IMG/VR virus record: IMGVR_UViG_3300029288_000054
Span: 326,607 to 388,105 of that record
DNA: 61,499 nucleotides
From: a virus
Taxonomy: Duplodnaviria; Heunggongvirae; Uroviricota; Caudoviricetes
Strand: one strand, 5' to 3'
Part shown: positions 4,020 through 31,476 of the stretch, piece after piece
How the letters are laid out: every line of letters begins with the position of its first letter
How positions within the stretch are numbered: the first letter of the stretch is position 1
Translations under genes and position numbers: made by a program
The notes under the pieces: model-generated
Databases searched by the model: none
The model's input: the letters and a program-made list of their open reading frames with translations, nothing else
Told to the model about the DNA's origin: nothing

Positions 4020-4351
4020 AGCAGTTCACCGATGTCAGGGAGTTAATGGGGCAAATCGCTCTCGATCTAGATAGTCGTGCTGGTGTTGTCGGTAGTGCGT
4101 TCCGCACCAATCTTCGTAAGGAACTTTTAGGGTTAGGATCAAAGGACAGTGTTGCCGTGTCGATAGAGCAGACGTCTTCTGGTACTATGATTTCGCTACA
4201 GATCCAAGAATGGGTTGATAAACTAGAACACAATACGATAGTAGAAGAATTCAAAGATTTAATGGATCGCATCGGTGCCACACCATCTGGTATTTGTGTA
4301 GGAGCGGTGCCAGGGAATTTAGTGGCGTTTCTGAGTAAAGGCGGGAAATAA
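4016..4351 (+). CDS. hypothetical protein
   Basis: ATGA-coupled 111-aa ORF. Confidence 0.6.
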   Translation: MKQFTDVRELMGQIALDLDSRAGVVGSAFRTNLRKELLGLGSKDSVAVSIEQTSSGTMISLQIQEWVDKLEHNTIVEEFKDLMDRIGATPSGICVGAVPGNLVAFLSKGGK

Positions 4352-5223
4352 TGGCTATTCACGAATTCACACCAGACGTACTGGAACAAGAAAAGACGTC
4401 TCGCCCAGTTCCTGGTCCTGAATTCAATCCACAGATTGATAGGGTGCCTATAGCCGTAGCACAGAGTAGTGACGTTCAAGGCGGTCGCAGTAAGATATAT
4501 GGCGAGCCGTTAGGGACGCAACCGGAGTTTGTCCAAGAATTCTTAATGCCAGGTTTTCATGCACTAGATGAAGCCATGAAAACATATTGGTCTGGTATCA
4601 GAATTCCAACTAAGGACTCTTATCGGTTTATGAGAGTTAAGATAGCTGGTGGTGATAAGAGCATTTTGATTTGGCGTGACCAGTTGAAGGACGGCAGAGT
4701 AAAGTTTCCAGTTGCTTCTATCAACAGATTGAGCCATGAATTCAACCCTCAGAAGTTTAGCTCTCCAGTTCTAACTATGGCTCGCAGATATACCAGCAGT
4801 CGTATGGACCGTGTTGCTCTAATTAGGCGACCAGTGCCATTCTTAGTTAAGTATACTATGACAATATGGGCATCTTGGAAGAGAGATGCAGATAATGCAC
4901 TTGAACAAATTCTGACACGTTTTAACCCATTGGCAGAATTTGTGATGAGCGACCAACACCTCCAAGGTAGCGTGCAGTTGCGGTTTGAGGGGTCTGCTGA
5001 CACTAGCGAAAAAGAGGCCGGTTTCGATCAAAAAGCTAAGACGCGGTATGAATTCTCTATGACTGCTGAGGCTTGGCTACCACTACCAGAGCTTATAGTT
5101 CCGACCATACTTGGCCATGTTAATGTTATTAGGGAATCTAGCACGAACCAACTACTATCTGTTGGACGTGGTGATACAACTAGACTATTCTGTAACCCGG
5201 CATCTGGCGGCTGGGATGTGTAA
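4351..5223 (+). CDS. tail terminator / sheath stabilizer, T4 gp15-like
   Basis: FPVASINR, PVPFLVKYTMTIW, LEQILTRFNP and FSMTAEAWL motifs; upstream of sheath. Confidence 0.8.
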   Translation: MAIHEFTPDVLEQEKTSRPVPGPEFNPQIDRVPIAVAQSSDVQGGRSKIYGEPLGTQPEFVQEFLMPGFHALDEAMKTYWSGIRIPTKDSYRFMRVKIAGGDKSILIWRDQLKDGRVKFPVASINRLSHEFNPQKFSSPVLTMARRYTSSRMDRVALIRRPVPFLVKYTMTIWASWKRDADNALEQILTRFNPLAEFVMSDQHLQGSVQLRFEGSADTSEKEAGFDQKAKTRYEFSMTAEAWLPLPELIVPTILGHVNVIRESSTNQLLSVGRGDTTRLFCNPASGGWDV

Positions 5224-5721: not shown

Positions 5722-8565
5722 ATGCCCACATATCTGAGCCCTGGTGTTTATCCAAGGGAAATAGACCTTAGCGCAGTCACTGGCAATGCCGGACCACTCC
5801 GTGCGGCATTTGTCGGGACCGCCAAAAAAGGTCCTATGAACACTCCGACCTTTGTGACAAGTGCACAACAGGCAATCGACATCTTCGGTGAACCGTTTGT
5901 CGAGAGTTATCTGATGTACGCGGTGCTTGCCTACTTGGAGGAGAGCAATCAAGCATACGTCATCCGAGTTGGTATCGAGTGCCAGGACGGCCAACCCGAT
6001 GAGTTGAATGACGTCTGCATCGATACTTCAGGCAATCGAATCAACGGTTGGAGCCGAATCCCAGTTTTCACTGGGATCGACTATGGCAAGCTGCAACTAC
6101 GGGCCGTGTCTGCGTTATCTCCTGTTATATTCCACGACGCAGGAGTCGAGAATATCGACTTCACCGACGTTAGCGTATCAGTTACGGAGGGTCCGACTGA
6201 CGCGACGTTGCAGTTTGACGGTGAAACCGATCTGAGTGATGGTTACACCGGATGCTTGGATGACACTTTCTCGCTGTTCATCACCGGAAGACCTGATGCT
6301 GGTTTCGCTATCAGTGGAGCCACATTCCAATTGTTCCGCAGTCGAGACAGCGCTTTGATGGCCAGCGGTGTCTTGTCTGAGAAGGTGCCCGGTACCAGTA
6401 CCAACATCGAAGTCGGGGAAGGGCTCGTCTGCAATATTCTGGTCACAAGTGGGCGACTGGACACCAACGACGTATTCTCTTTCACCGCCAAGCCATACAA
6501 CAGAGCGTTCGAGGTTGAAGTTGAGGGCGCTGGCAATCCTTACATCATGCCAGCCGCCACCTATTCAACTGCGACTGATCTCGTCGATGCGATCAACTTG
6601 CTTGTTACCGTCGAGGATTACGTTGCCGTCGTCAACAGCGACGGTTATCCGGAGCTTCGTACAAAGGTAGCTGGTCACCGTATCCAGCTCACCAGCTCGT
6701 GCGCATTTGCGAAAGAAGTCGGCACGGAGCAGTACGTCTACGACATTCCGCGTAGCTACTTGTTTGGAACCGACGCCGAGCCATACTTCATCAACAGCCA
6801 AAGCAACCGCATCGCAATCGACGTGATTCCAGCAGACAGAAGCACGACGGTTAGCCTCTCGTTCACTATTTTGACCGGGACGAATCTGTCTGCTGCTACG
6901 ATTGCGGCTGCAATCAATGGCAATGGTATGTATGCTGGCGACACATATTTCACAGCATTCGCTATCACGGCTCCAGGTAATATACAGCATGTCGTGATCG
7001 TGACATCTGATTCGCACCAGTTAGACCAGCTACAATTGAAGGCAAGCTACTCGAACCTCAAGACATTGACGTTCGCAGAAGAGCTTGGCATCCTAGCACC
7101 TTACACAAAGGCGTATCGCGGGTTCTACGACAGCCGTGTTTCGCTGCCGCCAACCGGCGAAGTGACACCTTCTGTGCCGTTGTCCTGCGAGTTGGACCCG
7201 AGCGGCCCGGAGTGTGCCTTGGACGCTGCGTACTTCCACAGCATTGTCGGTTGGTTTGTGGCGACAAGCGCCGGAACGTGGCTTGATAGCTACACTCTGA
7301 CGCTATCTCTACAGACGCAAATCGCTGGTAATCCGGCTGCACGCTATCAACTGGTTATCACCGATCCGAACGGTGCCACCGCCGACAACGTGCAGAACAT
7401 CAGCTTCGACAAGACCGATGACCGTTATATCGGTAATGTTTTGAACCCTGGTACTGCCTATGGTGGTGCCAACGGCAACGATTTCGTCAACTGGGAAGAC
7501 CGCCCGGCGTTCTTGAACAACGACGAACTCGATCCGAGCACCTATGAAGTCAGACAACCAGCCCAGCTTGCGAGCCATGTATTCAGCGGCGGTGCCAATG
7601 GCATCCCGATCGATCCCGCATTTTCAAGCGAGCTCGACGCCGCAATCATTGGCAACCCGCAAGATTCGAGTGGTATGTATGGTGTCCAGAACTCTGAGAC
7701 ATTCGACATCAATTTGCTCATCATACCAGGTATGACATCTGGTGCTGTGATCGGGCAAGGTCTACAACTGTGCGAAAGTCGTGGCGATGTACTCTACCTG
7801 GTCGATCCGCCTTTTGGGCTTCGGCCACAGCAAGTCGTCGATTGGCACAACGGCATGTTGCTTTCCGATTTATCGCATGCAATCAACAGCAGCTACGGTG
7901 CTCTATACTGGGGCTGGCTTGAGATCTACGATCAATTCAGCAAGCAGAACGTTTGGATTCCACCATCCGGACACGTTGGTTCGGTCTTCGCTCGCACTTC
8001 GAGAGTGGCCGACCAGTGGATGGCTCCTGCCGGTATCAATCGCGGCAAGTTGCTAACACCGTTGGCCGTCGAATATAACCCGAGTCAAGGCGAGCGTGAC
8101 CTATTATATGGTAGCGGTAACGCCGTGAACCCATTGGTTGCATTCCCGAAGGACGGCATCGTGGTCTTCGGTCAGCGGACACTGCAACGCACCGAAACGG
8201 CCCTTGATCGGGTCAATGTGCGGATGTTGTTGATCTACCTGAAGAAGAACTTGGTCCAGATACTTCGAGCTTTTGTGTTCGAGCCGAACGATGCAACGAC
8301 TTGGGCACAGGTTCGAACGCTCATCAACCCGTTTATGGCAGATATCCAAGCCCGACGTGGGTTGGATGCCTACAATGTGGTGTGCGACGAGTCGAATAAT
8401 ACCCCACAGCGGCGCGACATGAATCAGTTGTGGGTATCGGTGTTCATCAAACCGACCCGCGCGATCGAATTCATCGTGCTCAACTTGGTGGTCATGCAAT
8501 CTTCGGCATCCTTCAGTTCCGAGGAAGTCCTGGCAGCAGGTGGAGTTGTGGTGAGTGGTAGGTAG
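5722..8565 (+). CDS. gp18: contractile tail sheath protein
   Basis: MPTYLSPGVYPREID N-terminus; WMAPAGINRG, FGQRTL, RVNVRMLL, FVFEPND, IKPTRAIEFI. Confidence 0.97.
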   Translation: MPTYLSPGVYPREIDLSAVTGNAGPLRAAFVGTAKKGPMNTPTFVTSAQQAIDIFGEPFVESYLMYAVLAYLEESNQAYVIRVGIECQDGQPDELNDVCIDTSGNRINGWSRIPVFTGIDYGKLQLRAVSALSPVIFHDAGVENIDFTDVSVSVTEGPTDATLQFDGETDLSDGYTGCLDDTFSLFITGRPDAGFAISGATFQLFRSRDSALMASGVLSEKVPGTSTNIEVGEGLVCNILVTSGRLDTNDVFSFTAKPYNRAFEVEVEGAGNPYIMPAATYSTATDLVDAINLLVTVEDYVAVVNSDGYPELRTKVAGHRIQLTSSCAFAKEVGTEQYVYDIPRSYLFGTDAEPYFINSQSNRIAIDVIPADRSTTVSLSFTILTGTNLSAATIAAAINGNGMYAGDTYFTAFAITAPGNIQHVVIVTSDSHQLDQLQLKASYSNLKTLTFAEELGILAPYTKAYRGFYDSRVSLPPTGEVTPSVPLSCELDPSGPECALDAAYFHSIVGWFVATSAGTWLDSYTLTLSLQTQIAGNPAARYQLVITDPNGATADNVQNISFDKTDDRYIGNVLNPGTAYGGANGNDFVNWEDRPAFLNNDELDPSTYEVRQPAQLASHVFSGGANGIPIDPAFSSELDAAIIGNPQDSSGMYGVQNSETFDINLLIIPGMTSGAVIGQGLQLCESRGDVLYLVDPPFGLRPQQVVDWHNGMLLSDLSHAINSSYGALYWGWLEIYDQFSKQNVWIPPSGHVGSVFARTSRVADQWMAPAGINRGKLLTPLAVEYNPSQGERDLLYGSGNAVNPLVAFPKDGIVVFGQRTLQRTETALDRVNVRMLLIYLKKNLVQILRAFVFEPNDATTWAQVRTLINPFMADIQARRGLDAYNVVCDESNNTPQRRDMNQLWVSVFIKPTRAIEFIVLNLVVMQSSASFSSEEVLAAGGVVVSGR

Positions 8566-8585
8566 TCCGACGCGACGAATGGGCG

Positions 8586-8618
8586 AGAGGGCCAGCGAAA
8601 GCTGGCCCTCTTCGTATA
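8586..8618 (+). terminator. hairpin after sheath (terminator or processing element)
   Basis: AGAGGGCCAGC-GAAA-GCTGGCCCTCT then TCGTATA; no true U-tract. Confidence 0.6.
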
Positions 8619-8687
8619 AAGAATCCTACTACACATCAAACATAAGATATCGGCAATTGATCGGTTGCCTTGACGAAGGAGACTAAG

Positions 8688-9194
8688 ATGCCCGGATTCA
8701 ATATTTGTGGAACTGGTAATGGGCCAGCCGCCAACTTGGAAACTCGCAGAAAGCATCGCTGGGTTTTTCGAACCCTCGGCGGTGTTAATCCGGCTGCGTT
8801 ACTGGTCCTGCAATCAGCATCGCGACCGAATTTCAAGTTCGCAGAACCAGAAATGCACCACGACCAGGAAGTGGCTTACTTCGCCGGTAAGCAGACCTGG
8901 GAGCCGGTCAGCATGAAGTGGTATGATGTCGAGCAGAATCCCGACGTATCAGCCACAATTTACGAATGGCTGCGAACCGTTGTCGATCTGCCGACAGCTA
9001 CCGTATATGCACCAGCCGTGTATAAGCAGCAAGCGACGTTGGAGATGATCGGTGCTGCTGGTAATACGACCGAAACATGGATCATGTGTAATGCATGGCC
9101 CAAGGAAGTCAACTGGGGCGATTTGGATTATACAGCGACCGATATCGTGACGATTGAAGCGACGTTGCGATACGACAGGGCTCTCAGAGCCTAG
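8688..9194 (+). CDS. major tail tube protein (gp19-like), paralog 1
   Basis: AAGGAG SD + ATG; RKHRW, FAGKQTWEPVSMKWYD, NAWPKEVNWGDLDY, LRYD. Confidence 0.9.
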   Translation: MPGFNICGTGNGPAANLETRRKHRWVFRTLGGVNPAALLVLQSASRPNFKFAEPEMHHDQEVAYFAGKQTWEPVSMKWYDVEQNPDVSATIYEWLRTVVDLPTATVYAPAVYKQQATLEMIGAAGNTTETWIMCNAWPKEVNWGDLDYTATDIVTIEATLRYDRALRA

Positions 9195-9211
9195 TGTCGC
9201 TCGGAGATAAT

Positions 9212-9244
9212 AGAAGGCCAGCAATTGCTGGCCTTCTTCGTATA
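9212..9244 (+). terminator. hairpin after tube 1, near copy of the 8586 hairpin
   Basis: AGAAGGCCAGC-AATT-GCTGGCCTTCT then TCGTATA. Confidence 0.6.
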
Positions 9245-9314
9245 TATAGCATTCATATCAAACCTAAAGTAGTTGTTCTGTAATGTCTTACTCTATACGT
9301 GATTGGCGACACAA

Positions 9315-9851
9315 GTGCCAGGATTCAATATCGGCCAGAACAATCAGGCGCAGCAACCTGGAGCTACTGTTGAAGTAGCACGCCAACATCGTTGGAAGTT
9401 TGCTACTCTCGAACCTTTAAAGGATATACTACTATATGCCCATAAATCAGGCAGACCAAGGGTAGAATTCGATAAGGCCACTTTACATTACCAGCAAGAT
9501 TGTGTCTATTTCCCAGGTAAGCAGAAGTGGACACCGATAGAAATAAGCTTCTATCACATTATCACCAACACTGATGCTGCCTTTCAGATTTATCAATGGT
9601 GGTCGACTGGTGTCATAAATATAAACCGGTCTCAGATCAATCTTAAGAAGCGGACCTGCACGCTAGAAATGCTTAATGGAACCGGTGCTGCTATCTACAG
9701 GTATACAATGCATGGTTGCTGGCCGTCTAAGGTAACTCCAGATGAGCTTGATTATACCTCATCTAAGATATCTGAGATTACATTTACCTTAGAGATGGAT
9801 AAGGCGACTGAAGAGAAGGTTGACGTCGAGGATCAGGCACCAGCCGCATAA
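9315..9851 (+). CDS. tail tube-like protein, paralog 2
   Basis: GTG start gives MPGFNIG like paralog 1; RQHRW, FPGKQKWTP, GCWPSKV, ELDY. Confidence 0.8.
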   Translation: MPGFNIGQNNQAQQPGATVEVARQHRWKFATLEPLKDILLYAHKSGRPRVEFDKATLHYQQDCVYFPGKQKWTPIEISFYHIITNTDAAFQIYQWWSTGVININRSQINLKKRTCTLEMLNGTGAAIYRYTMHGCWPSKVTPDELDYTSSKISEITFTLEMDKATEEKVDVEDQAPAA

Positions 9852-9861
9852 GGAGAATATT

Positions 9862-10419
9862 ACGCCAGGATTCATAGTTGCTACTGATGTCGGTGCAGGA
9901 ATTGCAGCTACAGAGAATAATCTGAAGCCGGTTTATCAATATACCTGGGAGATCGTTAATTTATTCGAAGACAACCGCAACTTATTCCCGACGAAACTAT
10001 TAGCAAAGGAGGCGACACTACCGACCTTCACGATCACAAAAGATACTGTCGACGGTTCTTCTCTCGTTTATAAATATGCTGGGATGGTTACTTGGGAAGA
10101 TATCAGAATCACGTTCTATGATGTCGTGGTAGGTTCTAACAAGGCATCGCAGATTATTAAGGATTGGCGTGAGAAAGTATGGTCGGTGAAGACAGGTCTT
10201 AGTAGTCCAGTTGACTATAAGAAAGATTCTGTTATTAAAGTCTACAACCTAGACTTCTCAGCATGGACTACTTGGACTCTTTATGGTAGCTGGCCGCAGA
10301 GCGTTAAAGAAGGAGATTTGACATATACAGCTACCGAGATAAAGGTGATCGACGTAACTATTGCGTATGATTGGGCCGATTCTTCGTCAGACAGCAATTA
10401 TGTACCAGAAGGTTATTGA
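9862..10419 (+). CDS. tail tube-like protein, paralog 3 (probable ACG start)
   Basis: TAAGGAG SD then ACG CCA GGA TTC; YAGMVTWEDIRITFYD, GSWPQSVKEGDLTY, IAYD. Confidence 0.75.
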   Translation, partial: TPGFIVATDVGAGIAATENNLKPVYQYTWEIVNLFEDNRNLFPTKLLAKEATLPTFTITKDTVDGSSLVYKYAGMVTWEDIRITFYDVVVGSNKASQIIKDWREKVWSVKTGLSSPVDYKKDSVIKVYNLDFSAWTTWTLYGSWPQSVKEGDLTYTATEIKVIDVTIAYDWADSSSDSNYVPEGY

Positions 10420-10491: not shown

Positions 10492-11517
10492 ATGGCAGAT
10501 CGTGTAGAAGAAGAAGTACGTCTTACTGGCGGTGATACTCCGAGCCCATTGCAAGCACAAATGCAATCGGCAACGCCATTGAGTGAAAAGCCAGTCTCAG
10601 ATATCTCGAAACTGGTCGGGAATGCGACATCCGACCTTGATATCGTCGATATCATTTCAAGAGCTACGCCGGAACAGCTAATTCCTTGGGAAGAGACAAC
10701 CTTACCAAGTAAAGGACTCTACTACGGTTGGAGTTCTGGGGTAATTGGTGTCAAGGCGTGGTCGGCAAAGGTTGATAAGATCTTGGCTACTGCACGGCTG
10801 GCACAAACTGGCCAATCTATCGATTATATGCTCAAAGAATGCTGCCGGTTCCCGGATGGGTTCGATGTGCAAGATTTATTGGTTGGCGATCAGATCTATC
10901 TCTTGTACTATCTGCGTGGTATTACTCACGGCAATATCTATGAGTTTGCGTCGACTTGCCCGAATCAGCAATGTCAGCAAGTCGCCACACATACCATCGA
11001 TTTGAATGAGCTTGTCACCACGATCGTTTGGGCAAATGAATCGCTCGGCTCTGAGCCTTTTAAGGTGTCACTGCCATATCTGAGCAAGACGACCGGGAGG
11101 GAAATTACGGCATCGATCAGATATCTCCGCGTACGTGATGCGAACGGTATCCAGCGTGCGAAGAAGGCACAAAATATGGTTGTTGGCGGCTCTAGAGCCA
11201 AAATCAAGCCAAGAGAACGTGCTCAACAATTCGTTGATCATAGCCGGGATGAGATTGCTCTCGATGATCTGGTCACACAGAATATTGAGACGGTTATTGT
11301 CGATATTATGGGAGTTACGGATCGATTTAAGATTAAGAGCATCGTTAATAAGATGCACTCTACGGATATAGCCGTCATCAGAGAGTGGCTATCCGAAAAT
11401 ACCCCAAGCATCGAAACGATGGTCGAGATACAATGTGCGGCATGCAATGAAGCATACCGCGCTATGTTGCCGATCACCGAATCCTTTTTTCGTCCACAAA
11501 TCACACGAACAGTGTGA
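10492..11517 (+). CDS. baseplate hub / tail assembly chaperone, T4 gp26-like
   Basis: LPSKGLYY, LLVGDQIYLLYYLRGITHG, CPxxxC and CxxC motifs, C-terminal LPITESFFRP. Confidence 0.75.
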   Translation: MADRVEEEVRLTGGDTPSPLQAQMQSATPLSEKPVSDISKLVGNATSDLDIVDIISRATPEQLIPWEETTLPSKGLYYGWSSGVIGVKAWSAKVDKILATARLAQTGQSIDYMLKECCRFPDGFDVQDLLVGDQIYLLYYLRGITHGNIYEFASTCPNQQCQQVATHTIDLNELVTTIVWANESLGSEPFKVSLPYLSKTTGREITASIRYLRVRDANGIQRAKKAQNMVVGGSRAKIKPRERAQQFVDHSRDEIALDDLVTQNIETVIVDIMGVTDRFKIKSIVNKMHSTDIAVIREWLSENTPSIETMVEIQCAACNEAYRAMLPITESFFRPQITRTV

Positions 11518-12632: not shown

Positions 12633-15407
12633 ATGATCCAATATACAAAAATCGGATTAACAACATATGTCGAAGTGATCCAGGTCACTCCATCGGTGGG
12701 TAAATTCGCTATAAGTACCGTGATATTGGGTGTCTCTAGGTGGCAGAATCCTGGTAATCGATTCGATGTAATGGGAGATGGCGTAGTTGATATTAACGAC
12801 TATAATGCGATAGCTAATTATATCGCCACCTATGGGGCCGGGCCGCTGCCGAAGAATAGACCAGCAAATCAGCCATATGTTGATGTAAGTGGCGATGGCG
12901 TCGTTGATAATCGTGATATTACGCAGCTTCTTGCTTATATGCAGAACAAGAAGCTCATCGATACAACACAAATGCCAGAATATGGTATTGTTGATATCAA
13001 ACTAGAACGTGATCTGGTTGATCCAACTACCGTAACGACCGCTAAGGATGTCGCCGCCCAGAAGAATATTTTTCCGACAAATGACTATCTGGTTTTTCAA
13101 CGTGATCTGTCAACCAATGATCTGACTGAGATTTCATATTCAACGCCAGTAGCTAGTCGAGATAGTCTTGTTTTTGTTAATAAACAAGTTATCGTCCCTG
13201 TTCATCCATTTACCCCCGGATGCTACAATGACTCGTGCGTTTTTAGGCTGATAAAATCAAGAATCGCTGCAAGCGAAATATTGCCGATACGATTCAACAA
13301 GGCTGTTAGTACAACTGGAGTTATAACTGGTAGCGGATTGCCTATGCCTGGTATGGATACGAGCGATATGCCAGCACAACCAGTAGTAACAGAGCAAGTT
13401 ACACCGACCATCACATATGTTGAACAGACTGCGGTTGGAGAAGTGACTACAGATCCAACAGAACCGACTCCGATAGAGATTACACCGCCGCCAGTCGTGA
13501 TTCTCGACATATTCCCGTCGCCGTGTGTTATTATCGGTGAGATAAAGCTGGTTTGCATGTCGACTGATGGCAGTGGTAATGCTAGCACTGCGACCTGCAC
13601 TGCGAAGATGACCTCCAACACGACACCGACACCATATGTAGTTAGTGCAGATAGCGCACGATCAGAAAACAACCCAACGCATCTTGGGCAGTATGTTTTC
13701 AAGTCTTATCGTTATGGCGTACAACAGATCGAAACGACGTTAGACCCGACAACTTCGGACTTTTATCATTGGATTGGTGGTGACTACGAAATAAATTGGG
13801 CATTATCGGGTGGCGACGACCCCAGCCGTATGGCTGGCTTCATTGATCCAAGAACTATACCAGGTGCCTATCTGATCTGTATAGAGGATCAGCGGCCTCC
13901 TCGTGGGTCTGTGTTTGATGCATGTGTTCTGGTACGTCCTTTACCTGATGGTAAAGTTAGCTGCTTGCAGAACGGCGAATCAGATCATACTTATACGCAC
14001 AAACTATTTGGCCCAGATGGTAATGTGGTCTTCAATCCGTTCGTCCATGGTAATGCGTGGACGACATGGGAAGAGGCGTCGTTCTTCTGTCCGGCGTGGA
14101 AGGCATTCAACAGATCTAGCCTCGACGAGAACGATATGTGGGCTAGTCAGCCTACGTCGTTCCCACATTATCTGCAGTATGATTTCAATACCCCTGTAGT
14201 CATAAATAAATATGCAATACAAGAACGCAATTCGCCAAATTTTGTGGGATTTCCAAGAGATTTCACTCTACAAGCTTCAAATGATAATATGACCTGGACG
14301 ACACTTGACGCGAGAGCCAGCGTCAATGCGCCAGGCCCAGCGTCTTGGAGTAGTTACTTCACATTTAACAATGGGACAGCGTATCGCTACTATAGATTAA
14401 ACGTTACTGCTGTCACTGGTGGCGGGACCGAGACCAATATATCTGAGCTCAAGCTAATTTGTGTTTCTGTTGACGGTGCAAATAATGCTGCAACGAATGC
14501 TTGCACTGCTATTATGGCATCTAACACAGTGCCGGAACCGAATGTTGTTAATGCTACGAGTGAATATTATTCTGAGTATCGCTCGACATATTATTCGGCA
14601 TGGAAAGCATTCAGTGGCACAAATCTTGGTGAATCAGATAGATGGATAAGTGCAACATCAATCGCACCGTGGTATATCCAATACGATTTTGGTGTTGGCC
14701 GTGCAGTTGCTATAAACAAATACGCCATCCAAGAGCAGAATTACAATGGTACGACTGTTATAAATGGCGAAATCATAAACGAACAGAGCTACAACAGCGG
14801 GGACGGATTCCCACGTGATTTCACTCTTCAAGGTTCAAACGATGGTACTAACTGGATCGTTTTAGACACAAGAATTAACATCGAAGCGCCAGGTTTGAAT
14901 TCTTGGACTCCATACTTTACGTTTACTAATGGTGTAGCTTATCGATATTATAAGATTCATATTACTGTTGTTAATGGGCAGCTAGCAATGCCAATCGTGG
15001 GTGAGACGTCACCAACAGATTGTACGATCGTTGCAAGCCCAAGTGCTACGATCCGTAATGTCGTGATCACACAATATAATGAGGCTGAACGTGTTACTCC
15101 TGTGTTCCAGACAGCAGGACAATCGCAGACAACTCTCTACTCTAATCAGGATTTAGTCATAACCTTCAATGCATATGACCTTGAGAAGGGCGTCTATTCA
15201 GCATCGTTGTGGTTGGATGGAGTGCGAATACCGATTACTACAGGACCGCATACAGATACGAGTGTTGGAGGAGTAAACTTTGGTGTGGCAATAGGACAGC
15301 GTGCTTCAGGCATACATAGCTACACAATTGTAGCTATAAATAACGACGGCGTTTCAACAACACCACCATACACTTGCTGGTTTACTGTATTGCAGGGCGG
15401 AGCGTGA
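12633..15407 (+). CDS. adhesin-like virion protein: planctomycete-type dockerin + two discoidin (F5/8C-like) domains + Ig-like domain
   Basis: DVMGDGVVDIND / DVSGDGVVDNRD pair; duplicated AWKAF...QYDF...INKYAIQE...FPRDFTLQxSND...AYRYY. Confidence 0.75.
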   Translation: MIQYTKIGLTTYVEVIQVTPSVGKFAISTVILGVSRWQNPGNRFDVMGDGVVDINDYNAIANYIATYGAGPLPKNRPANQPYVDVSGDGVVDNRDITQLLAYMQNKKLIDTTQMPEYGIVDIKLERDLVDPTTVTTAKDVAAQKNIFPTNDYLVFQRDLSTNDLTEISYSTPVASRDSLVFVNKQVIVPVHPFTPGCYNDSCVFRLIKSRIAASEILPIRFNKAVSTTGVITGSGLPMPGMDTSDMPAQPVVTEQVTPTITYVEQTAVGEVTTDPTEPTPIEITPPPVVILDIFPSPCVIIGEIKLVCMSTDGSGNASTATCTAKMTSNTTPTPYVVSADSARSENNPTHLGQYVFKSYRYGVQQIETTLDPTTSDFYHWIGGDYEINWALSGGDDPSRMAGFIDPRTIPGAYLICIEDQRPPRGSVFDACVLVRPLPDGKVSCLQNGESDHTYTHKLFGPDGNVVFNPFVHGNAWTTWEEASFFCPAWKAFNRSSLDENDMWASQPTSFPHYLQYDFNTPVVINKYAIQERNSPNFVGFPRDFTLQASNDNMTWTTLDARASVNAPGPASWSSYFTFNNGTAYRYYRLNVTAVTGGGTETNISELKLICVSVDGANNAATNACTAIMASNTVPEPNVVNATSEYYSEYRSTYYSAWKAFSGTNLGESDRWISATSIAPWYIQYDFGVGRAVAINKYAIQEQNYNGTTVINGEIINEQSYNSGDGFPRDFTLQGSNDGTNWIVLDTRINIEAPGLNSWTPYFTFTNGVAYRYYKIHITVVNGQLAMPIVGETSPTDCTIVASPSATIRNVVITQYNEAERVTPVFQTAGQSQTTLYSNQDLVITFNAYDLEKGVYSASLWLDGVRIPITTGPHTDTSVGGVNFGVAIGQRASGIHSYTIVAINNDGVSTTPPYTCWFTVLQGGA

Positions 15408-15408
15408 T

Positions 15409-18400
15409 ATGACGGTGCCAACTAGACAAATCGTGCAATCTCAGACCTCTACTGTGCAGCAGTATCCGATTTCGTTCGATAACAGATATATGCTCACTGG
15501 ATTTGTGAGTGCTAGTTTGGTGCCGGGTACGCCGTTTGTCAATATGTGGGGTAACGTCACTGTAGCTAGTTTATTGGTGACAGATAAAAAAGGCGTCACG
15601 TCAAGAATCAATAGACGACTACAGACGCTGAATCAAGATAATATATCTGTAGCTTACGATCAGGAGACACTAGATTCTGTCTTAGCTTTGTTGCGGATTT
15701 GCCGCTGGCCTGATATAGAACATTATAAGGCGTTTCTGCTAGATGCGAACACCTTATATCCATGTACTGTTACGAATCTTGAAACTAATCAATGGGTATC
15801 GCAGCCACTCGAAATTGACATTGATCACACAATATTCACTACACAATACGCCACATGGCAAGTTCAACAATTGGAGTATGCTGGCTATAATCTACCACAA
15901 CTCGGAGATATTTGGAGTGGCGGACTAGTTTTAGAAATAGAAAATACGATGGTGGATCTTGGTTCCTATCGTACCCAAGATGTACTATTCGGAAGTTCTA
16001 CCACAAGCCCGACATATATTGAGAAATTGACAGCTACCTTACCTGTAGCTGGATATCAATACTTACGTGCAGCCGGGTATAACACACCTTTCGTTAGAGC
16101 CGATTTACCTTATACGCTAGAATGGTATAGTGATTCGTCTGATGTTGTGGCGACAGATTTATATTGTAGAGACTTATGTTGTTCTGGCTGTGACGGGGTT
16201 TACTATGGCAGCTTTCCTCCATCAGGCTCGGTCGCTGTTGACGGACACCCGAATGGAACTCAACGCCTATGGCTCATTAAAGGCAAGAATGCATCTGGTG
16301 CAGTTATCACGCAGATGTGGTTCAGTGCTGTCGCAACATGCCCGAGAAGGTTGACATATTTCGGAGATTTCATAGAAGATTGCAAGCTGCCACCCTCACC
16401 GCCACCACCTCCACCTCCACCGTCGCCGACTCCACTTCCGCCACCACCATCGCCCTCGACCAGCCCGTCGCCGTCGCCGTCGCCATCAAGATCATCTTGG
16501 CAGTCGCCCTCTCCGTCGCCTTCACCTTCGCAATCATTGTTATCGCCATCAGTTTCCAGATCGCCTTCACCTTCTATATCGCCATCGGCTGAATCGCCTT
16601 CAACATCTAGATCGCCTTCACCTTCAACATCCAGATCACCATTAGCTTCACAATCATTATCGCTTTCTCCTTCTTTGAGTAGGTCGTTATCGCCGTCATT
16701 GTCGCCTTCACCTTCGCCTTCATTATCTCATTCGTTGTCGCCGTCGCCATCACCATCACTTTCAAGGTCGATGTCGCCATCTCCTTCACCATCGGTGGAA
16801 GTTAGCCATAATTATGGCAAGCCGCGTATTTCCGATGGTGTTGATGGTAGATTTGTGATTGTTTGGGAGAATAATGATAACGCGGCTGCGCCTGTCGTGA
16901 TGGCGCAGGTTTTTGCAGCTAATAATACGCCAATTACCGGTGCTTTTATAGTGCCATCTTACGTTGATAAAACAAGTCGAACTCCAGATGTAGCAATGGG
17001 TCCAGATGGGACATTTATGGTTGTTTGGGAAGGTCCAGACCTCGATTACGCCACTGGCATCCAATGTAGATCGTATGATGCAAACGGCAACCCGGTATAT
17101 AATCCAGTATCAGGCGACAACGGGCAATTTCGTATTAACGCACTTGCTAGCGCACGTTATTATACGCCAGCCATAGGCATGCGTTCCGATAAGAGTTTTG
17201 TAGTTGTGTGGCCCGAATATTACAATATTAGTAGTAACAATCCAGGCACTCGCATTTTTGGCTCACGGAGATATGCTGGCGGCAATCCGATGAGCGGCCA
17301 ATTTCAAGTGACGCCAGATAACCCAGGTGGCTATAATTATAAAATCAACCCAGATGTTGATGTTGCAGACAATGGCGATTTTACTGTTGTTTGGGATGAA
17401 GGTTGGCAAGATTATGCGAACACATTTCAAGTATTTGGTATTCGCTATAATGCTGCACAAACTCTGATTACAGGCGCGTTCAAAGTCAACCAAATCAATT
17501 CTATGATGGATTGGGATGGTATGATGTCGCCGAGAGTATCAGTTGCACCGGGCGGCTCATTCGTAGTAGTTTGGCACAGATATCCAAACTTTAGCGGACC
17601 TGACTACATCACTCCGACACCGACAGGTGGATTTGCTACCGTTATTAGACGTTATAATTCAGCCGGCGCAGCACAAGGCGGTGAATTCCAACTGAATCAA
17701 GGATTCTTGACCAATTATACGTCGCCACGTGGAGAAAGTGGATATCTTTATAATGTTTATCCGGATGTTGCGTGTGACAAAGACGGCAATTTCATCGTCG
17801 TTTGGGAGACTACTTGGTCATCAGCAGAGAAACGTGATGATCCGATAACATTAGACGGTGCGATATGGGGTAGAGAATGCAATGTCGGTGGCGGTACAAT
17901 CACAGATGAATTTTCTGTTAACAACTATCAAATGGCACATCGTGCTATTGGTAGTCAAGCATACCCAGCAGTGACTCGAAAAGCTGGTAGCGGTCAATGG
18001 GTTGCCGCTTGGCAAGGGCCACAAGGTATCGCACCAGACGGAGGACCGTTAGGCATTTATCGTTTACAAGTTACAGATCCAAACGATATCAGACGGCAGC
18101 CAATACCATCAATATTTTGGGTACTAAACGCACCACTTTCTGGTAACTATCCTCAGGGATCTAATGTCACTGTTTCTTGGTTCGCAAATGGTATCCAACC
18201 AGGTTATACTGTTTGTTTATGTATTACTTCTGACCCTGGGTGGGGAGGTACGCCAATATGGATTTCGGTAGGTGCCATTCCTGCCGCAAATGGCTGGGCG
18301 AATTGGATATGGAATGGCCGCAACACTGACGGTAATCTTGTCCCGAAAGGCACTTACTACATTGCCGGTTATATTTGGAATGGTAGCGGTCCTACATATG

Positions 18401-18456: not shown

Positions 18457-19548
18457 ATGTACGTCCCAATACCAAAAGACAAGATAACTGGCTGGGTTTA
18501 TAAGAATTTCCCTGACTGCAAACCGAGAAAGGGAGGCGATGAGCTACGCATCAACAATCCGTTCGATGGCGATGACGGATATCATTTCAATATCAGTGTT
18601 GAAAAGGCTTCTGTCCATGACTGGCGTGGCGACTCAGCGTGGGCTGGTATAAACCCAAATACCGGCAAGATTAACAAGCGAACGTTCTTGAGATTCGTTC
18701 AGCACTATCTGACTCTCAAGAAAGGAAGCTGTTCATTCTCTCAAGCCGTCCAAGACGTTCTTGGAGCGTCTTCTGGTGCCCGTGCGTTGTTCAAGTGGCA
18801 CAGAACACGTCTGATGCCAGAGCTCAAAGAAAACGCTTCTCTCGCCCTTCCCGAAGGCACGACGGAATTTGGTGAGACACAGCCCAAGCTTGTGGCTGGC
18901 TTAATTGCTTGGCTTGCTAGTAGGGGTGTCGATCACAGGAAAATCAACAAATATCAGATCAGGTATAGTGGTCTTAATGTGGTATGGCCGTACTTTGAGT
19001 ACGATGAGCTAGTCTATTGGCAAAGCAGATCACGCCTCAACAAGAAATTCATGTTTCCACCGGAAAGTGTCGGCGTGACGAAAGGCCAATTCTTTTACGG
19101 GTTTGATCAAGTTGAGCCAGCAAGTTTTGTTATAATAGTCGAATCAATCTTCAATTGCCTGACATTGGAAGATCAATGCCTTGCCTCTGGTGGATCATCT
19201 CTTACCGATACTCAAGCCAAAAAGATGCGGCTGATCGGTCCTAAAGATGGCATTATTCTTGCACCAGACAATGATAAGGCCGGTATAGAGAGCATATTCT
19301 ACAATGCTGCACTACTACAACCGCTCGACTACAAGATTTTCTATGCTTTGCCGCCAATCGTGCAATTACCAGATGGTAAAATGAGCAACGACTGGAACGA
19401 TCTTGTAAAAGTAGCTGATTTGCCTGAGATACGACAAACATTCGAGAAGAGCGTTAAGCCATTCAACATACAGCAGAAGCTATATCTGGAGAACAGATTG
19501 AGGAATATGGCGAATGTCGTCAAGCCTAAGCTACTTGAGCAATCTTAA
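18457..19548 (+). CDS. DNA primase (DnaG/TOPRIM type)
   Basis: WLASRGV, YWQSR, IIVESIFN, LAPDNDKAG, DWND. Confidence 0.8.
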   Translation: MYVPIPKDKITGWVYKNFPDCKPRKGGDELRINNPFDGDDGYHFNISVEKASVHDWRGDSAWAGINPNTGKINKRTFLRFVQHYLTLKKGSCSFSQAVQDVLGASSGARALFKWHRTRLMPELKENASLALPEGTTEFGETQPKLVAGLIAWLASRGVDHRKINKYQIRYSGLNVVWPYFEYDELVYWQSRSRLNKKFMFPPESVGVTKGQFFYGFDQVEPASFVIIVESIFNCLTLEDQCLASGGSSLTDTQAKKMRLIGPKDGIILAPDNDKAGIESIFYNAALLQPLDYKIFYALPPIVQLPDGKMSNDWNDLVKVADLPEIRQTFEKSVKPFNIQQKLYLENRLRNMANVVKPKLLEQS

Positions 19549-31113: not shown

Positions 31114-31476
31114 ATGAGCATACCAATCGGCCCTGTGCAAGGGAAAATTTGGGGCACGACGCAGAGTATATTTAATCTTAATGGCATAGATGTCAATAGA
31201 TTGATTTCTCTTGCACGTGGTTATTGCTCAGAGCACTGCCACGCATGCAAATTCTCTCGATTCTTCGTTCTTCGAGGGAAGATGAAGGTCACCATTTTTA
31301 GCGGCGAGATTGCAGACGAGATCGTCTTGACAGCGGGGATGTGTACGGATGTACCACCAGGTGTATGGCACAAGTTTGAAGCTCTTGAAGATTCTGACAC
31401 CATCGAAATCTATTGGGTAGTACTAGATAGTAATGACATTGAAAGACGAACTACCGGTGGGATCTCTACCGAATAA
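31114..31476 (+). CDS. cupin-domain protein
   Basis: GKIWG, CSEHCH, PPGVWHKFEA cupin motifs. Confidence 0.8.
   Translation: MSIPIGPVQGKIWGTTQSIFNLNGIDVNRLISLARGYCSEHCHACKFSRFFVLRGKMKVTIFSGEIADEIVLTAGMCTDVPPGVWHKFEALEDSDTIEIYWVVLDSNDIERRTTGGISTE

Follow-up and report, generated by a model that had tools for sequence, protein, structure and literature searches.

In bacteria and their viruses, natural starts at ACG, ATT or ATA are regarded as rare oddities. The closest described cases are the Escherichia coli genes infC, which encodes initiation factor 3 (IF3), and pcnB; both have an AUU start that is read by the initiator tRNA and policed by IF3 (10.1101/063800, PMC3592434). In E. coli, AUU, AUA, AUC and CUG give 1-2% of the output of AUG, and all other non-canonical codons, including ACG, give 0.1-1%. 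An ACG-started E. coli reporter carried an N-terminal Met, and ACG is absent from the confirmed natural E. coli starts listed in the same study (10.1101/063800). The subject of this report is a set of three tail-tube genes in the last 61.5 kb (61,499 nucleotides, referred to as the window) of a 388,105-bp IMG/VR virus record, IMGVR_UViG_3300029288_000054, an uncultured giant phage whose completeness is 99% by CheckV. The third gene, tube 3, has ACG in the column where its homologues have their start codon. No description of tail-tube genes with such a concentration of near-cognate starts turned up in literature searches.

As with infC and pcnB, a near-cognate codon behind a Shine-Dalgarno (SD) sequence would limit the translation of an otherwise normal gene, and tube 3 resembles them in having a one-base mismatch at the start column and an SD at normal spacing. 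Unlike them, the tube genes have ACG, ATT or ATA at this position, the pattern covers three paralogous virion genes, the codon changes between relatives and no feedback is known. For the proteins themselves, the closest described set is T4 gp19 with its partners gp54, gp48 and gp3, which also comprises several tube-fold proteins with genes adjoining the sheath gene. In the T4 set and in the two-tube sets of extracellular injection systems (Afp1/Afp5, Pvc1/Pvc5), one tube-fold protein is present in many copies and the others form single rings. The present set differs from all of these in consisting of three small, same-sized paralogs with a common PGF N-terminus.

The three tail-tube genes

The tube genes lie in a T4-like contractile-tail module between the sheath gene and the baseplate hub gene, and they adjoin the sheath gene as expected of a gp19-type tube. 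The features of the array, all on the + strand, are the following (the Pfam cut-off for PF06841 is 28.2 bits):

8676..8681, +, SD of tube 1, AAGGAG; duplex -8.8 kcal/mol; 6-nt spacing, the commonest in the genome
8688..9194, +, tube paralog 1, 168 aa, ATG start, N-terminus (M)PGFNI; PF06841 31.3 bits; phrog_4542 E 3.6e-24
9315..9851, +, tube paralog 2, 178 aa, GTG start with a near-absent SD (duplex -1.9 kcal/mol); PF06841 38.1 bits
9850..9855, +, SD of tube 3, AAGGAG; overlaps the tube-2 stop codon TAA at 9849-9851; duplex -9.3 kcal/mol
9859..9861, +, ATT, alternative near-cognate start, the codon before ACG; 3 nt past the SD
9862..9864, +, ACG, most likely initiation codon of tube 3; 6 nt past the SD and aligned with the start column of the homologues
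9862..10419, +, tube paralog 3, 185 aa, N-terminus xPGFIV; PF06841 34.8 bits; intact frame

The shared N-terminus is encoded by ATG CCC GGA TTC in tube 1, GTG CCA GGA TTC in tube 2 and ACG CCA GGA TTC in tube 3, and the coordinates given for these three starts by a first-pass annotation, made from the letters of the window, are correct. That annotation also described the SD of tube 2 as weak, in agreement with the duplex energy; its 7-nt spacer between the tube-3 SD and ACG is in fact 6 nt (AATATT). Relative to tube 2, the frame of tube 3 is +1. The only canonical start codon upstream in its frame is TTG 9820 (codon -14), and the next one downstream is ATG 10084 (codon +74), so that the earlier statement that no in-frame ATG occurs before 10084 holds.

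All three proteins exceed the PF06841 cut-off and match phrog_4542, "tail tube protein", with E values of 1e-19 to 1e-24. Their pairwise identity is 28-36%, with P2, G3 and F4 common to all, and a search of the genome with tube 3 returned only three matches, the tube paralogs. The tube-3 family profile matches T4 gp19 (E 5.2e-5). The top fold match of the predicted tube-3 model (pLDDT 74) is also T4 gp19 (5w5f_A, E 1.3e-8, TM 0.59/0.65), and the model matches chains of baseplate and cap complexes as well. Residues 1-25 of the model are disordered, and it is therefore uninformative on why PGF is conserved. Tube 3 is a real, intact tail-tube gene.

Fold and sequence searches did not discriminate a major from a minor tube subunit. 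The first-pass annotation envisaged one major subunit alongside initiator or cap rings, and tube 1 could be that major subunit, with tubes 2 and 3 forming the rings. Tube 1 is the best conserved paralog (85-98% identity in the first ten related loci, L004-L013), yet tube 3 comes closest to gp19 both in its profile match and in its fold, the fold comparison covering tube 3 only.

Start codons and leaders across the phage group

Homologues of tube 3 are annotated with an MPGF N-terminus down to 37% identity, and several close homologues are shortened or extended by gene finders. In the codon before PGF, tube 3 has ACG in the window, in L004, L005 and L006 (95-99% identical) and in L010 (82%); ATT in L007/L008, L009 and L013; ATA in L012, L016 and L023; TTG in L011; and ATG in one sub-group (L017-L021, L057) and in all 30 distant relatives. 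The ACG of the window is thus unchanged in four other assemblies, and the possibility that close orthologs would show ATG is not borne out. A T/C error at 9863 had also been raised. Logan contigs from three independent studies (X5 record 4, X7 record 16, X9 record 23) show 0 differences at 9862-9864; because the same ACG occurs in independent contigs, an error in a single assembly is ruled out, although contigs may hide minority alleles.

No canonical codon is found between the upstream in-frame stop and PGF in L007, L009, L010, L012, L013 and L023, so that these loci lack a usable canonical start, as the window would but for the non-conserved TTG 9820. In L007/L008, L009, L013 and L023 the upstream frame is closed 4-8 codons before PGF. 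Downstream, invariant residues fall inside the first 74 codons, and ATG 10084 therefore cannot be the start of tube 3. Tube 3 is the genome's only case of a full AAGGAG with a near-cognate codon and no nearby canonical start, and its AAGGAG-6 nt-ACG spacing matches the mode of the genome's ATG starts, 6-7 nt. The reading frames of the relatives support the start proposed by the first-pass annotation: tube 3 must begin at a near-cognate codon, either ACG 9862 or ATT 9859.

Gene finders disallow ACG, ATT and ATA starts, and public protein records consequently hold wrong forms. The records P0001, P0002, P0005, P0013, P0014 and P0016, which comprise tube 3 and close relatives, are miscalled; one has 14 additional residues and others are without the N-terminus. 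The non-canonical start is a likely cause, with some records perhaps just cut at contig ends.

The survey of start codons covered 145 distinct xPGF tube genes from about 80 loci, and the three-gene array is kept throughout. The starts in the close clade, with the mean SD duplex energy (kcal/mol) for each class of start codon, are:

Tube 1: ATG 9, GTG 2, TTG 3, ATT 4, ATA 0, ACG 0; near-cognate -8.0 (n=4), GTG/TTG -10.1 (n=5), ATG -9.3 (n=9)
Tube 2: ATG 2, GTG 8, TTG 6, ATT 3, ATA 0, ACG 1; near-cognate -7.2 (n=4), GTG/TTG -3.9 (n=14), ATG -2.2 (n=2)
Tube 3: ATG 6, GTG 0, TTG 1, ATT 3, ATA 3, ACG 5; near-cognate -8.4 (n=11), GTG/TTG -5.3 (n=1), ATG -3.6 (n=6)

Near-cognate codons (ATT, ATA or ACG) thus occupy 19 of the 56 close-clade start sites, and in the xPGF alignment all 56 start columns hold ATG or a codon one mismatch from it, which exceeds chance. 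Distant relatives nearly always have ATG, the exception being ATT on tube 1 in L041, L064 and L070. The combinations for tubes 1, 2 and 3 vary: GTG/ATT/ATT in L009, ATG/TTG/ATA in L023, GTG/GTG/ATA in L016, ATT/ATG/ATG in L020 and ATG/GTG/ATG in L017. The idea that graded start-codon and SD strength sets the ratio of the tube proteins fits the appearance of the window (ATG and ACG each behind a strong SD, GTG behind none), but the order is not conserved across the family. As a family rule, ATG > GTG > ACG fails in L020, in L006 and L008 (ATT on tube 1), in L017, L021 and L057 (ATG on tube 3) and in the three distant relatives just named.

Neighbouring genes served as a control. About 60 kb of synteny was taken from five related genomes, and the start columns of 34 neighbouring genes were aligned across the six genomes; the start-column method left 13 of 51 genes unresolved. 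The control columns hold ATG 177 times and GTG 13 times, 12 of the latter coming from two genes in which GTG is constant across the genomes. Over the six genomes, near-cognate starts were found at 7 of 18 tube-gene sites and at 0 of 192 sites in neighbouring genes (Fisher p 9.9e-9). Among the control columns with ATG throughout, some (window 26674, 36381, 40010) probably fall on internal Met codons, which leaves the contrast unaffected. Two apparent ATA control starts, in orthologues of the genes at 15409 and 21772, were rejected as alignment slips with ATG adjacent. Near-cognate starts are concentrated in the tube genes, unlike their neighbours.

Window genes 20408 and 32835 have a GTG start behind a clear SD, and the aligned column is GTG in all six genomes; for gene 32835 a direct check put the start elsewhere in three relatives. 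This stable GTG contrasts with the unstable starts of the tube genes.

On the protein trees (about 20 sequences each) the minimum number of start-codon changes is 9 for tube 1, 9 for tube 2 and 7 for tube 3. Tube-1 proteins of L019 and L020 are identical, and their starts are ATG and ATT, respectively. Leader flanks were compared for tube 1. Between the window and L004, the tube-1 coding sequences are 95% identical and the 200-nt leaders are unrelated; between L004 and L009 the leaders are 97-99% identical, but the coding sequences only 81%. In strain-variant contigs from two runs, the sequence departs from that of the window at 8689, and the leader is of the L004 type, which precedes TTG in L004. 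Changes of the tube-1 start codon thus accompany exchange of the entire leader, with the junction at the start codon. These 200-nt leaders of tube 1 (window 8480-8690; L004, L009, L006, L020) exist in several unrelated versions that do not track the protein tree.

SD strength and start codon run in opposite directions in tubes 2 and 3, which tend to pair one weak with one strong element; tube 1 has a strong SD in every class. The retention of a strong SD at start spacing before ACG, ATT and ATA is evidence that these codons are used. Near-cognate starts here cluster in one virion gene set across a whole giant-phage group, and the natural leader series (one gene behind ATG, GTG, TTG, ATT, ATA or ACG, its SD strong or weak) lends itself directly to tests of the trade-off between start codon and ribosome-binding site. 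It could reveal whether phages tune the ratio of tail parts at initiation.

Proposed initiation of tube 3 and its alternatives

We consider it probable that translation of tube 3 begins at ACG 9862, which the initiator tRNA would read as Met, with ATT 9859 as a lesser or additional start. The strong AAGGAG 6 nt upstream would position the ribosome. The simplest reading of the mechanism is ordinary initiator-tRNA decoding of a one-mismatch codon held by a strong SD. This SD shares bases with the tube-2 stop codon, so ribosomes that have just completed tube 2 may also re-start there, and ribosomes terminating 10 nt upstream of ACG may help (PMC3592434). By the E. coli data, protein output from an ACG-started tube 3 should be far below that of tube 1, whose ATG stands behind the same SD at equal spacing. 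Across the family, start codon and SD strength could be two interchangeable settings of a dial for tube-gene expression. Such a dial would evolve fast, in tube 1 by exchange of whole leader segments joined at the start codon. No special apparatus for such starts turned up in the phage tRNA-Met(CAT) or the leader, with no search aimed at phage-encoded initiation factors; the RNA of the leader (9800-9920) showed no unusual predicted structure (z -0.12).

Several points weigh against this proposal. A near-cognate codon arises from ATG by any single mutation, and its near-cognate status alone is therefore no proof of use. The seven relatives with ATT on tube 1 (L006, L008, L010, L020, L041, L064, L070) do not fit a rule by which a weak start marks a minor subunit. 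The yield figures are those of E. coli, and the stringency of the actual host, whichever it is, may differ. For the trend between SD and start codon, tube 3 provides about 2 independent contrasts and tube 2 provides 1-2; every one goes in the expected direction, but they are too few for significance to be possible. Finally, ATT or ATC stands at codon -1 in 6 of 6 ACG sites (tube 3 of the window, L004, L005, L006 and L010; tube 2 of L012). ACG is thus never seen alone in the family.

This last point is the strength of the alternative that ATT 9859 is the true start, giving Met-Thr-Pro-Gly-Phe, and that ACG is an ordinary Thr codon, the remnant of a decayed ATG. The preceding ATT or ATC is absent at most other sites, and AUU outperforms ACG as a start in E. 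coli. The spacing points the other way: the ACG sites lie 6-7 nt past the SD, the genome mode, and the preceding ATT or ATC lies at 3-4 nt (3 nt in the window), where ATG starts of this genome are rare. The unambiguous near-cognate sites, those without ATT or ATC just upstream (L009, L012, L013, L023), are 7-9 nt past the SD by manual count. Furthermore, the Thr codon after ATT or ATC is always ACG and never a synonym, and a start at ATT would add an N-terminal residue found in no homologue. Spacing thus speaks for ACG, and E. coli codon yields speak for ATT. In our estimate ACG is the favored start codon; ATT, alone or together with ACG, is a substantial second possibility, its use as the sole true start with ACG a mere Thr codon rates a little lower, and only a small share falls to other explanations. 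A start at ACG predicts the tube-3 N-terminal peptide PGFIVATDVGAG... or Met-PGF..., and a start at ATT 9859 predicts (Met-)Thr-PGF....

Somewhat less probable is that the identity of the start codon is near-neutral. Tube proteins would then be in excess or set elsewhere, and codons would drift and be reshuffled by leader recombination with no role in stoichiometry. The order of starts among paralogs, which is not conserved (L020 and L017), the occurrence of identical proteins with different starts and the junctions at the start codon would all be expected in this case. Free drift is difficult to reconcile with a codon within one mismatch of ATG at every one of the 56 sites, with the matching of weak codons to strong SDs and vice versa in tubes 2 and 3, and with the lack of any such drift in neighbouring genes.

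Two further ideas concern regulation, and both are unlikely. The first, which goes beyond the preferred start at ACG, is that leader and start codon form exchangeable modules in which near-cognate starts act as proofreading-sensitive switches, tying tube output to the initiation state of the host and being reset by recombination among co-circulating phages. If so, the switches could be a late-infection timer or a means of keeping free tube protein low. The second, slightly less likely still, is that a dedicated late-infection mechanism, e.g., phage relief of IF3 proofreading, makes near-cognate starts efficient, so that they are timed and not weak. Its support is indirect: near-cognate codons occur even on tube 1, the most conserved paralog, and IF3 is the known gatekeeper of such codons (PMC9723500). 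A general mechanism of this kind fits poorly with a pattern confined to tube genes, and the phage tRNA-Met(CAT) is without the three G-C pairs of the initiator anticodon stem.

A start of tube 3 at TTG 9820, as in the public gene call (199 aa), is very improbable. The window, L004 and L005 have this TTG, and no other canonical codon lies upstream in the frame. L006, which is 95% identical, and L010 have lost it, so that this start, named by the first-pass annotation as one that would overturn its proposal, is not conserved. L007, L009, L013 and L023 cannot start there, since their frame closes shortly upstream of PGF; the only purine run abuts the codon with no spacer; and the 14 extra residues are not conserved.

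Least credible of all is a sequencing error, a pseudogene or a tube 2-tube 3 fusion made by frameshift or readthrough: a canonical start is missing and tube 3 is in the +1 frame relative to tube 2, but independent assemblies and runs agree on ACG, the intact frame is conserved, a strong SD remains at start spacing, and the overlap in L007 spans only a few bases, with the tube-3 frame open for only 6 codons. In L023, tubes 2 and 3 are in one frame with two tandem stops between them, which excludes a fusion protein, and the shared slippery motif and conserved overlap of open frames expected of programmed frameshifting or readthrough were not seen. C-to-U editing of ACG was also dismissed, as it would leave ATT and ATA unexplained.

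Genome setting and neighbouring genes

Landfill and groundwater metagenomes carry the same DNA as the window. The genes flanking the tube array and two nearby hairpins are:

4351-5220, sheath stabiliser gene
5722-8565, sheath gene, 947 aa; PF17482; PF04984 30.6 bits, just below the cut-off of 31.4
8586..8611, +, hairpin 3' of the sheath gene; stem GGCCAGC / GCTGGCC, loop GAAA; read directly
9213..9236, +, second copy of the hairpin, 3' of tube 1; loop AATT; read directly
10492-11517, baseplate hub gene

No counterpart of gp48 or gp54 was recognisable by PHROGs and Pfam in the ten baseplate-region proteins scanned, which does not imply absence. A 363-aa protein within the tail and baseplate module (18457-19545) matches DNA primase families (phrog_47, E 4e-24). 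A 120-aa cupin protein (31114-31473; PF07883; PHROG "cysteine dioxygenase") is encoded directly 3' of gp25-like and baseplate-J-like genes. The 924-aa protein at 12633-15407 has an N-terminal dockerin type I domain and two F5/8 type C (discoidin) domains, and is likely a surface-binding tail or fibre component.

Five phage tRNAs, Leu-TAA, Ser-TGA, Arg-TCT, Thr-TGT and Met-CAT, are encoded outside the window (G000:C1 151532-151615, 216136-216352, 218293-218453). Those for Leu, Arg and Met have a G-U pair at 1:72, and the anticodon stem of the Met tRNA is A/U-rich and not initiator-like.

Both hairpins have a 4-nt loop and are followed by TCGTATA and an A/T-rich stretch. A scan for consensus terminators flagged neither of them; roles in processing or stability are conceivable, as is weak termination ahead of late promoters.

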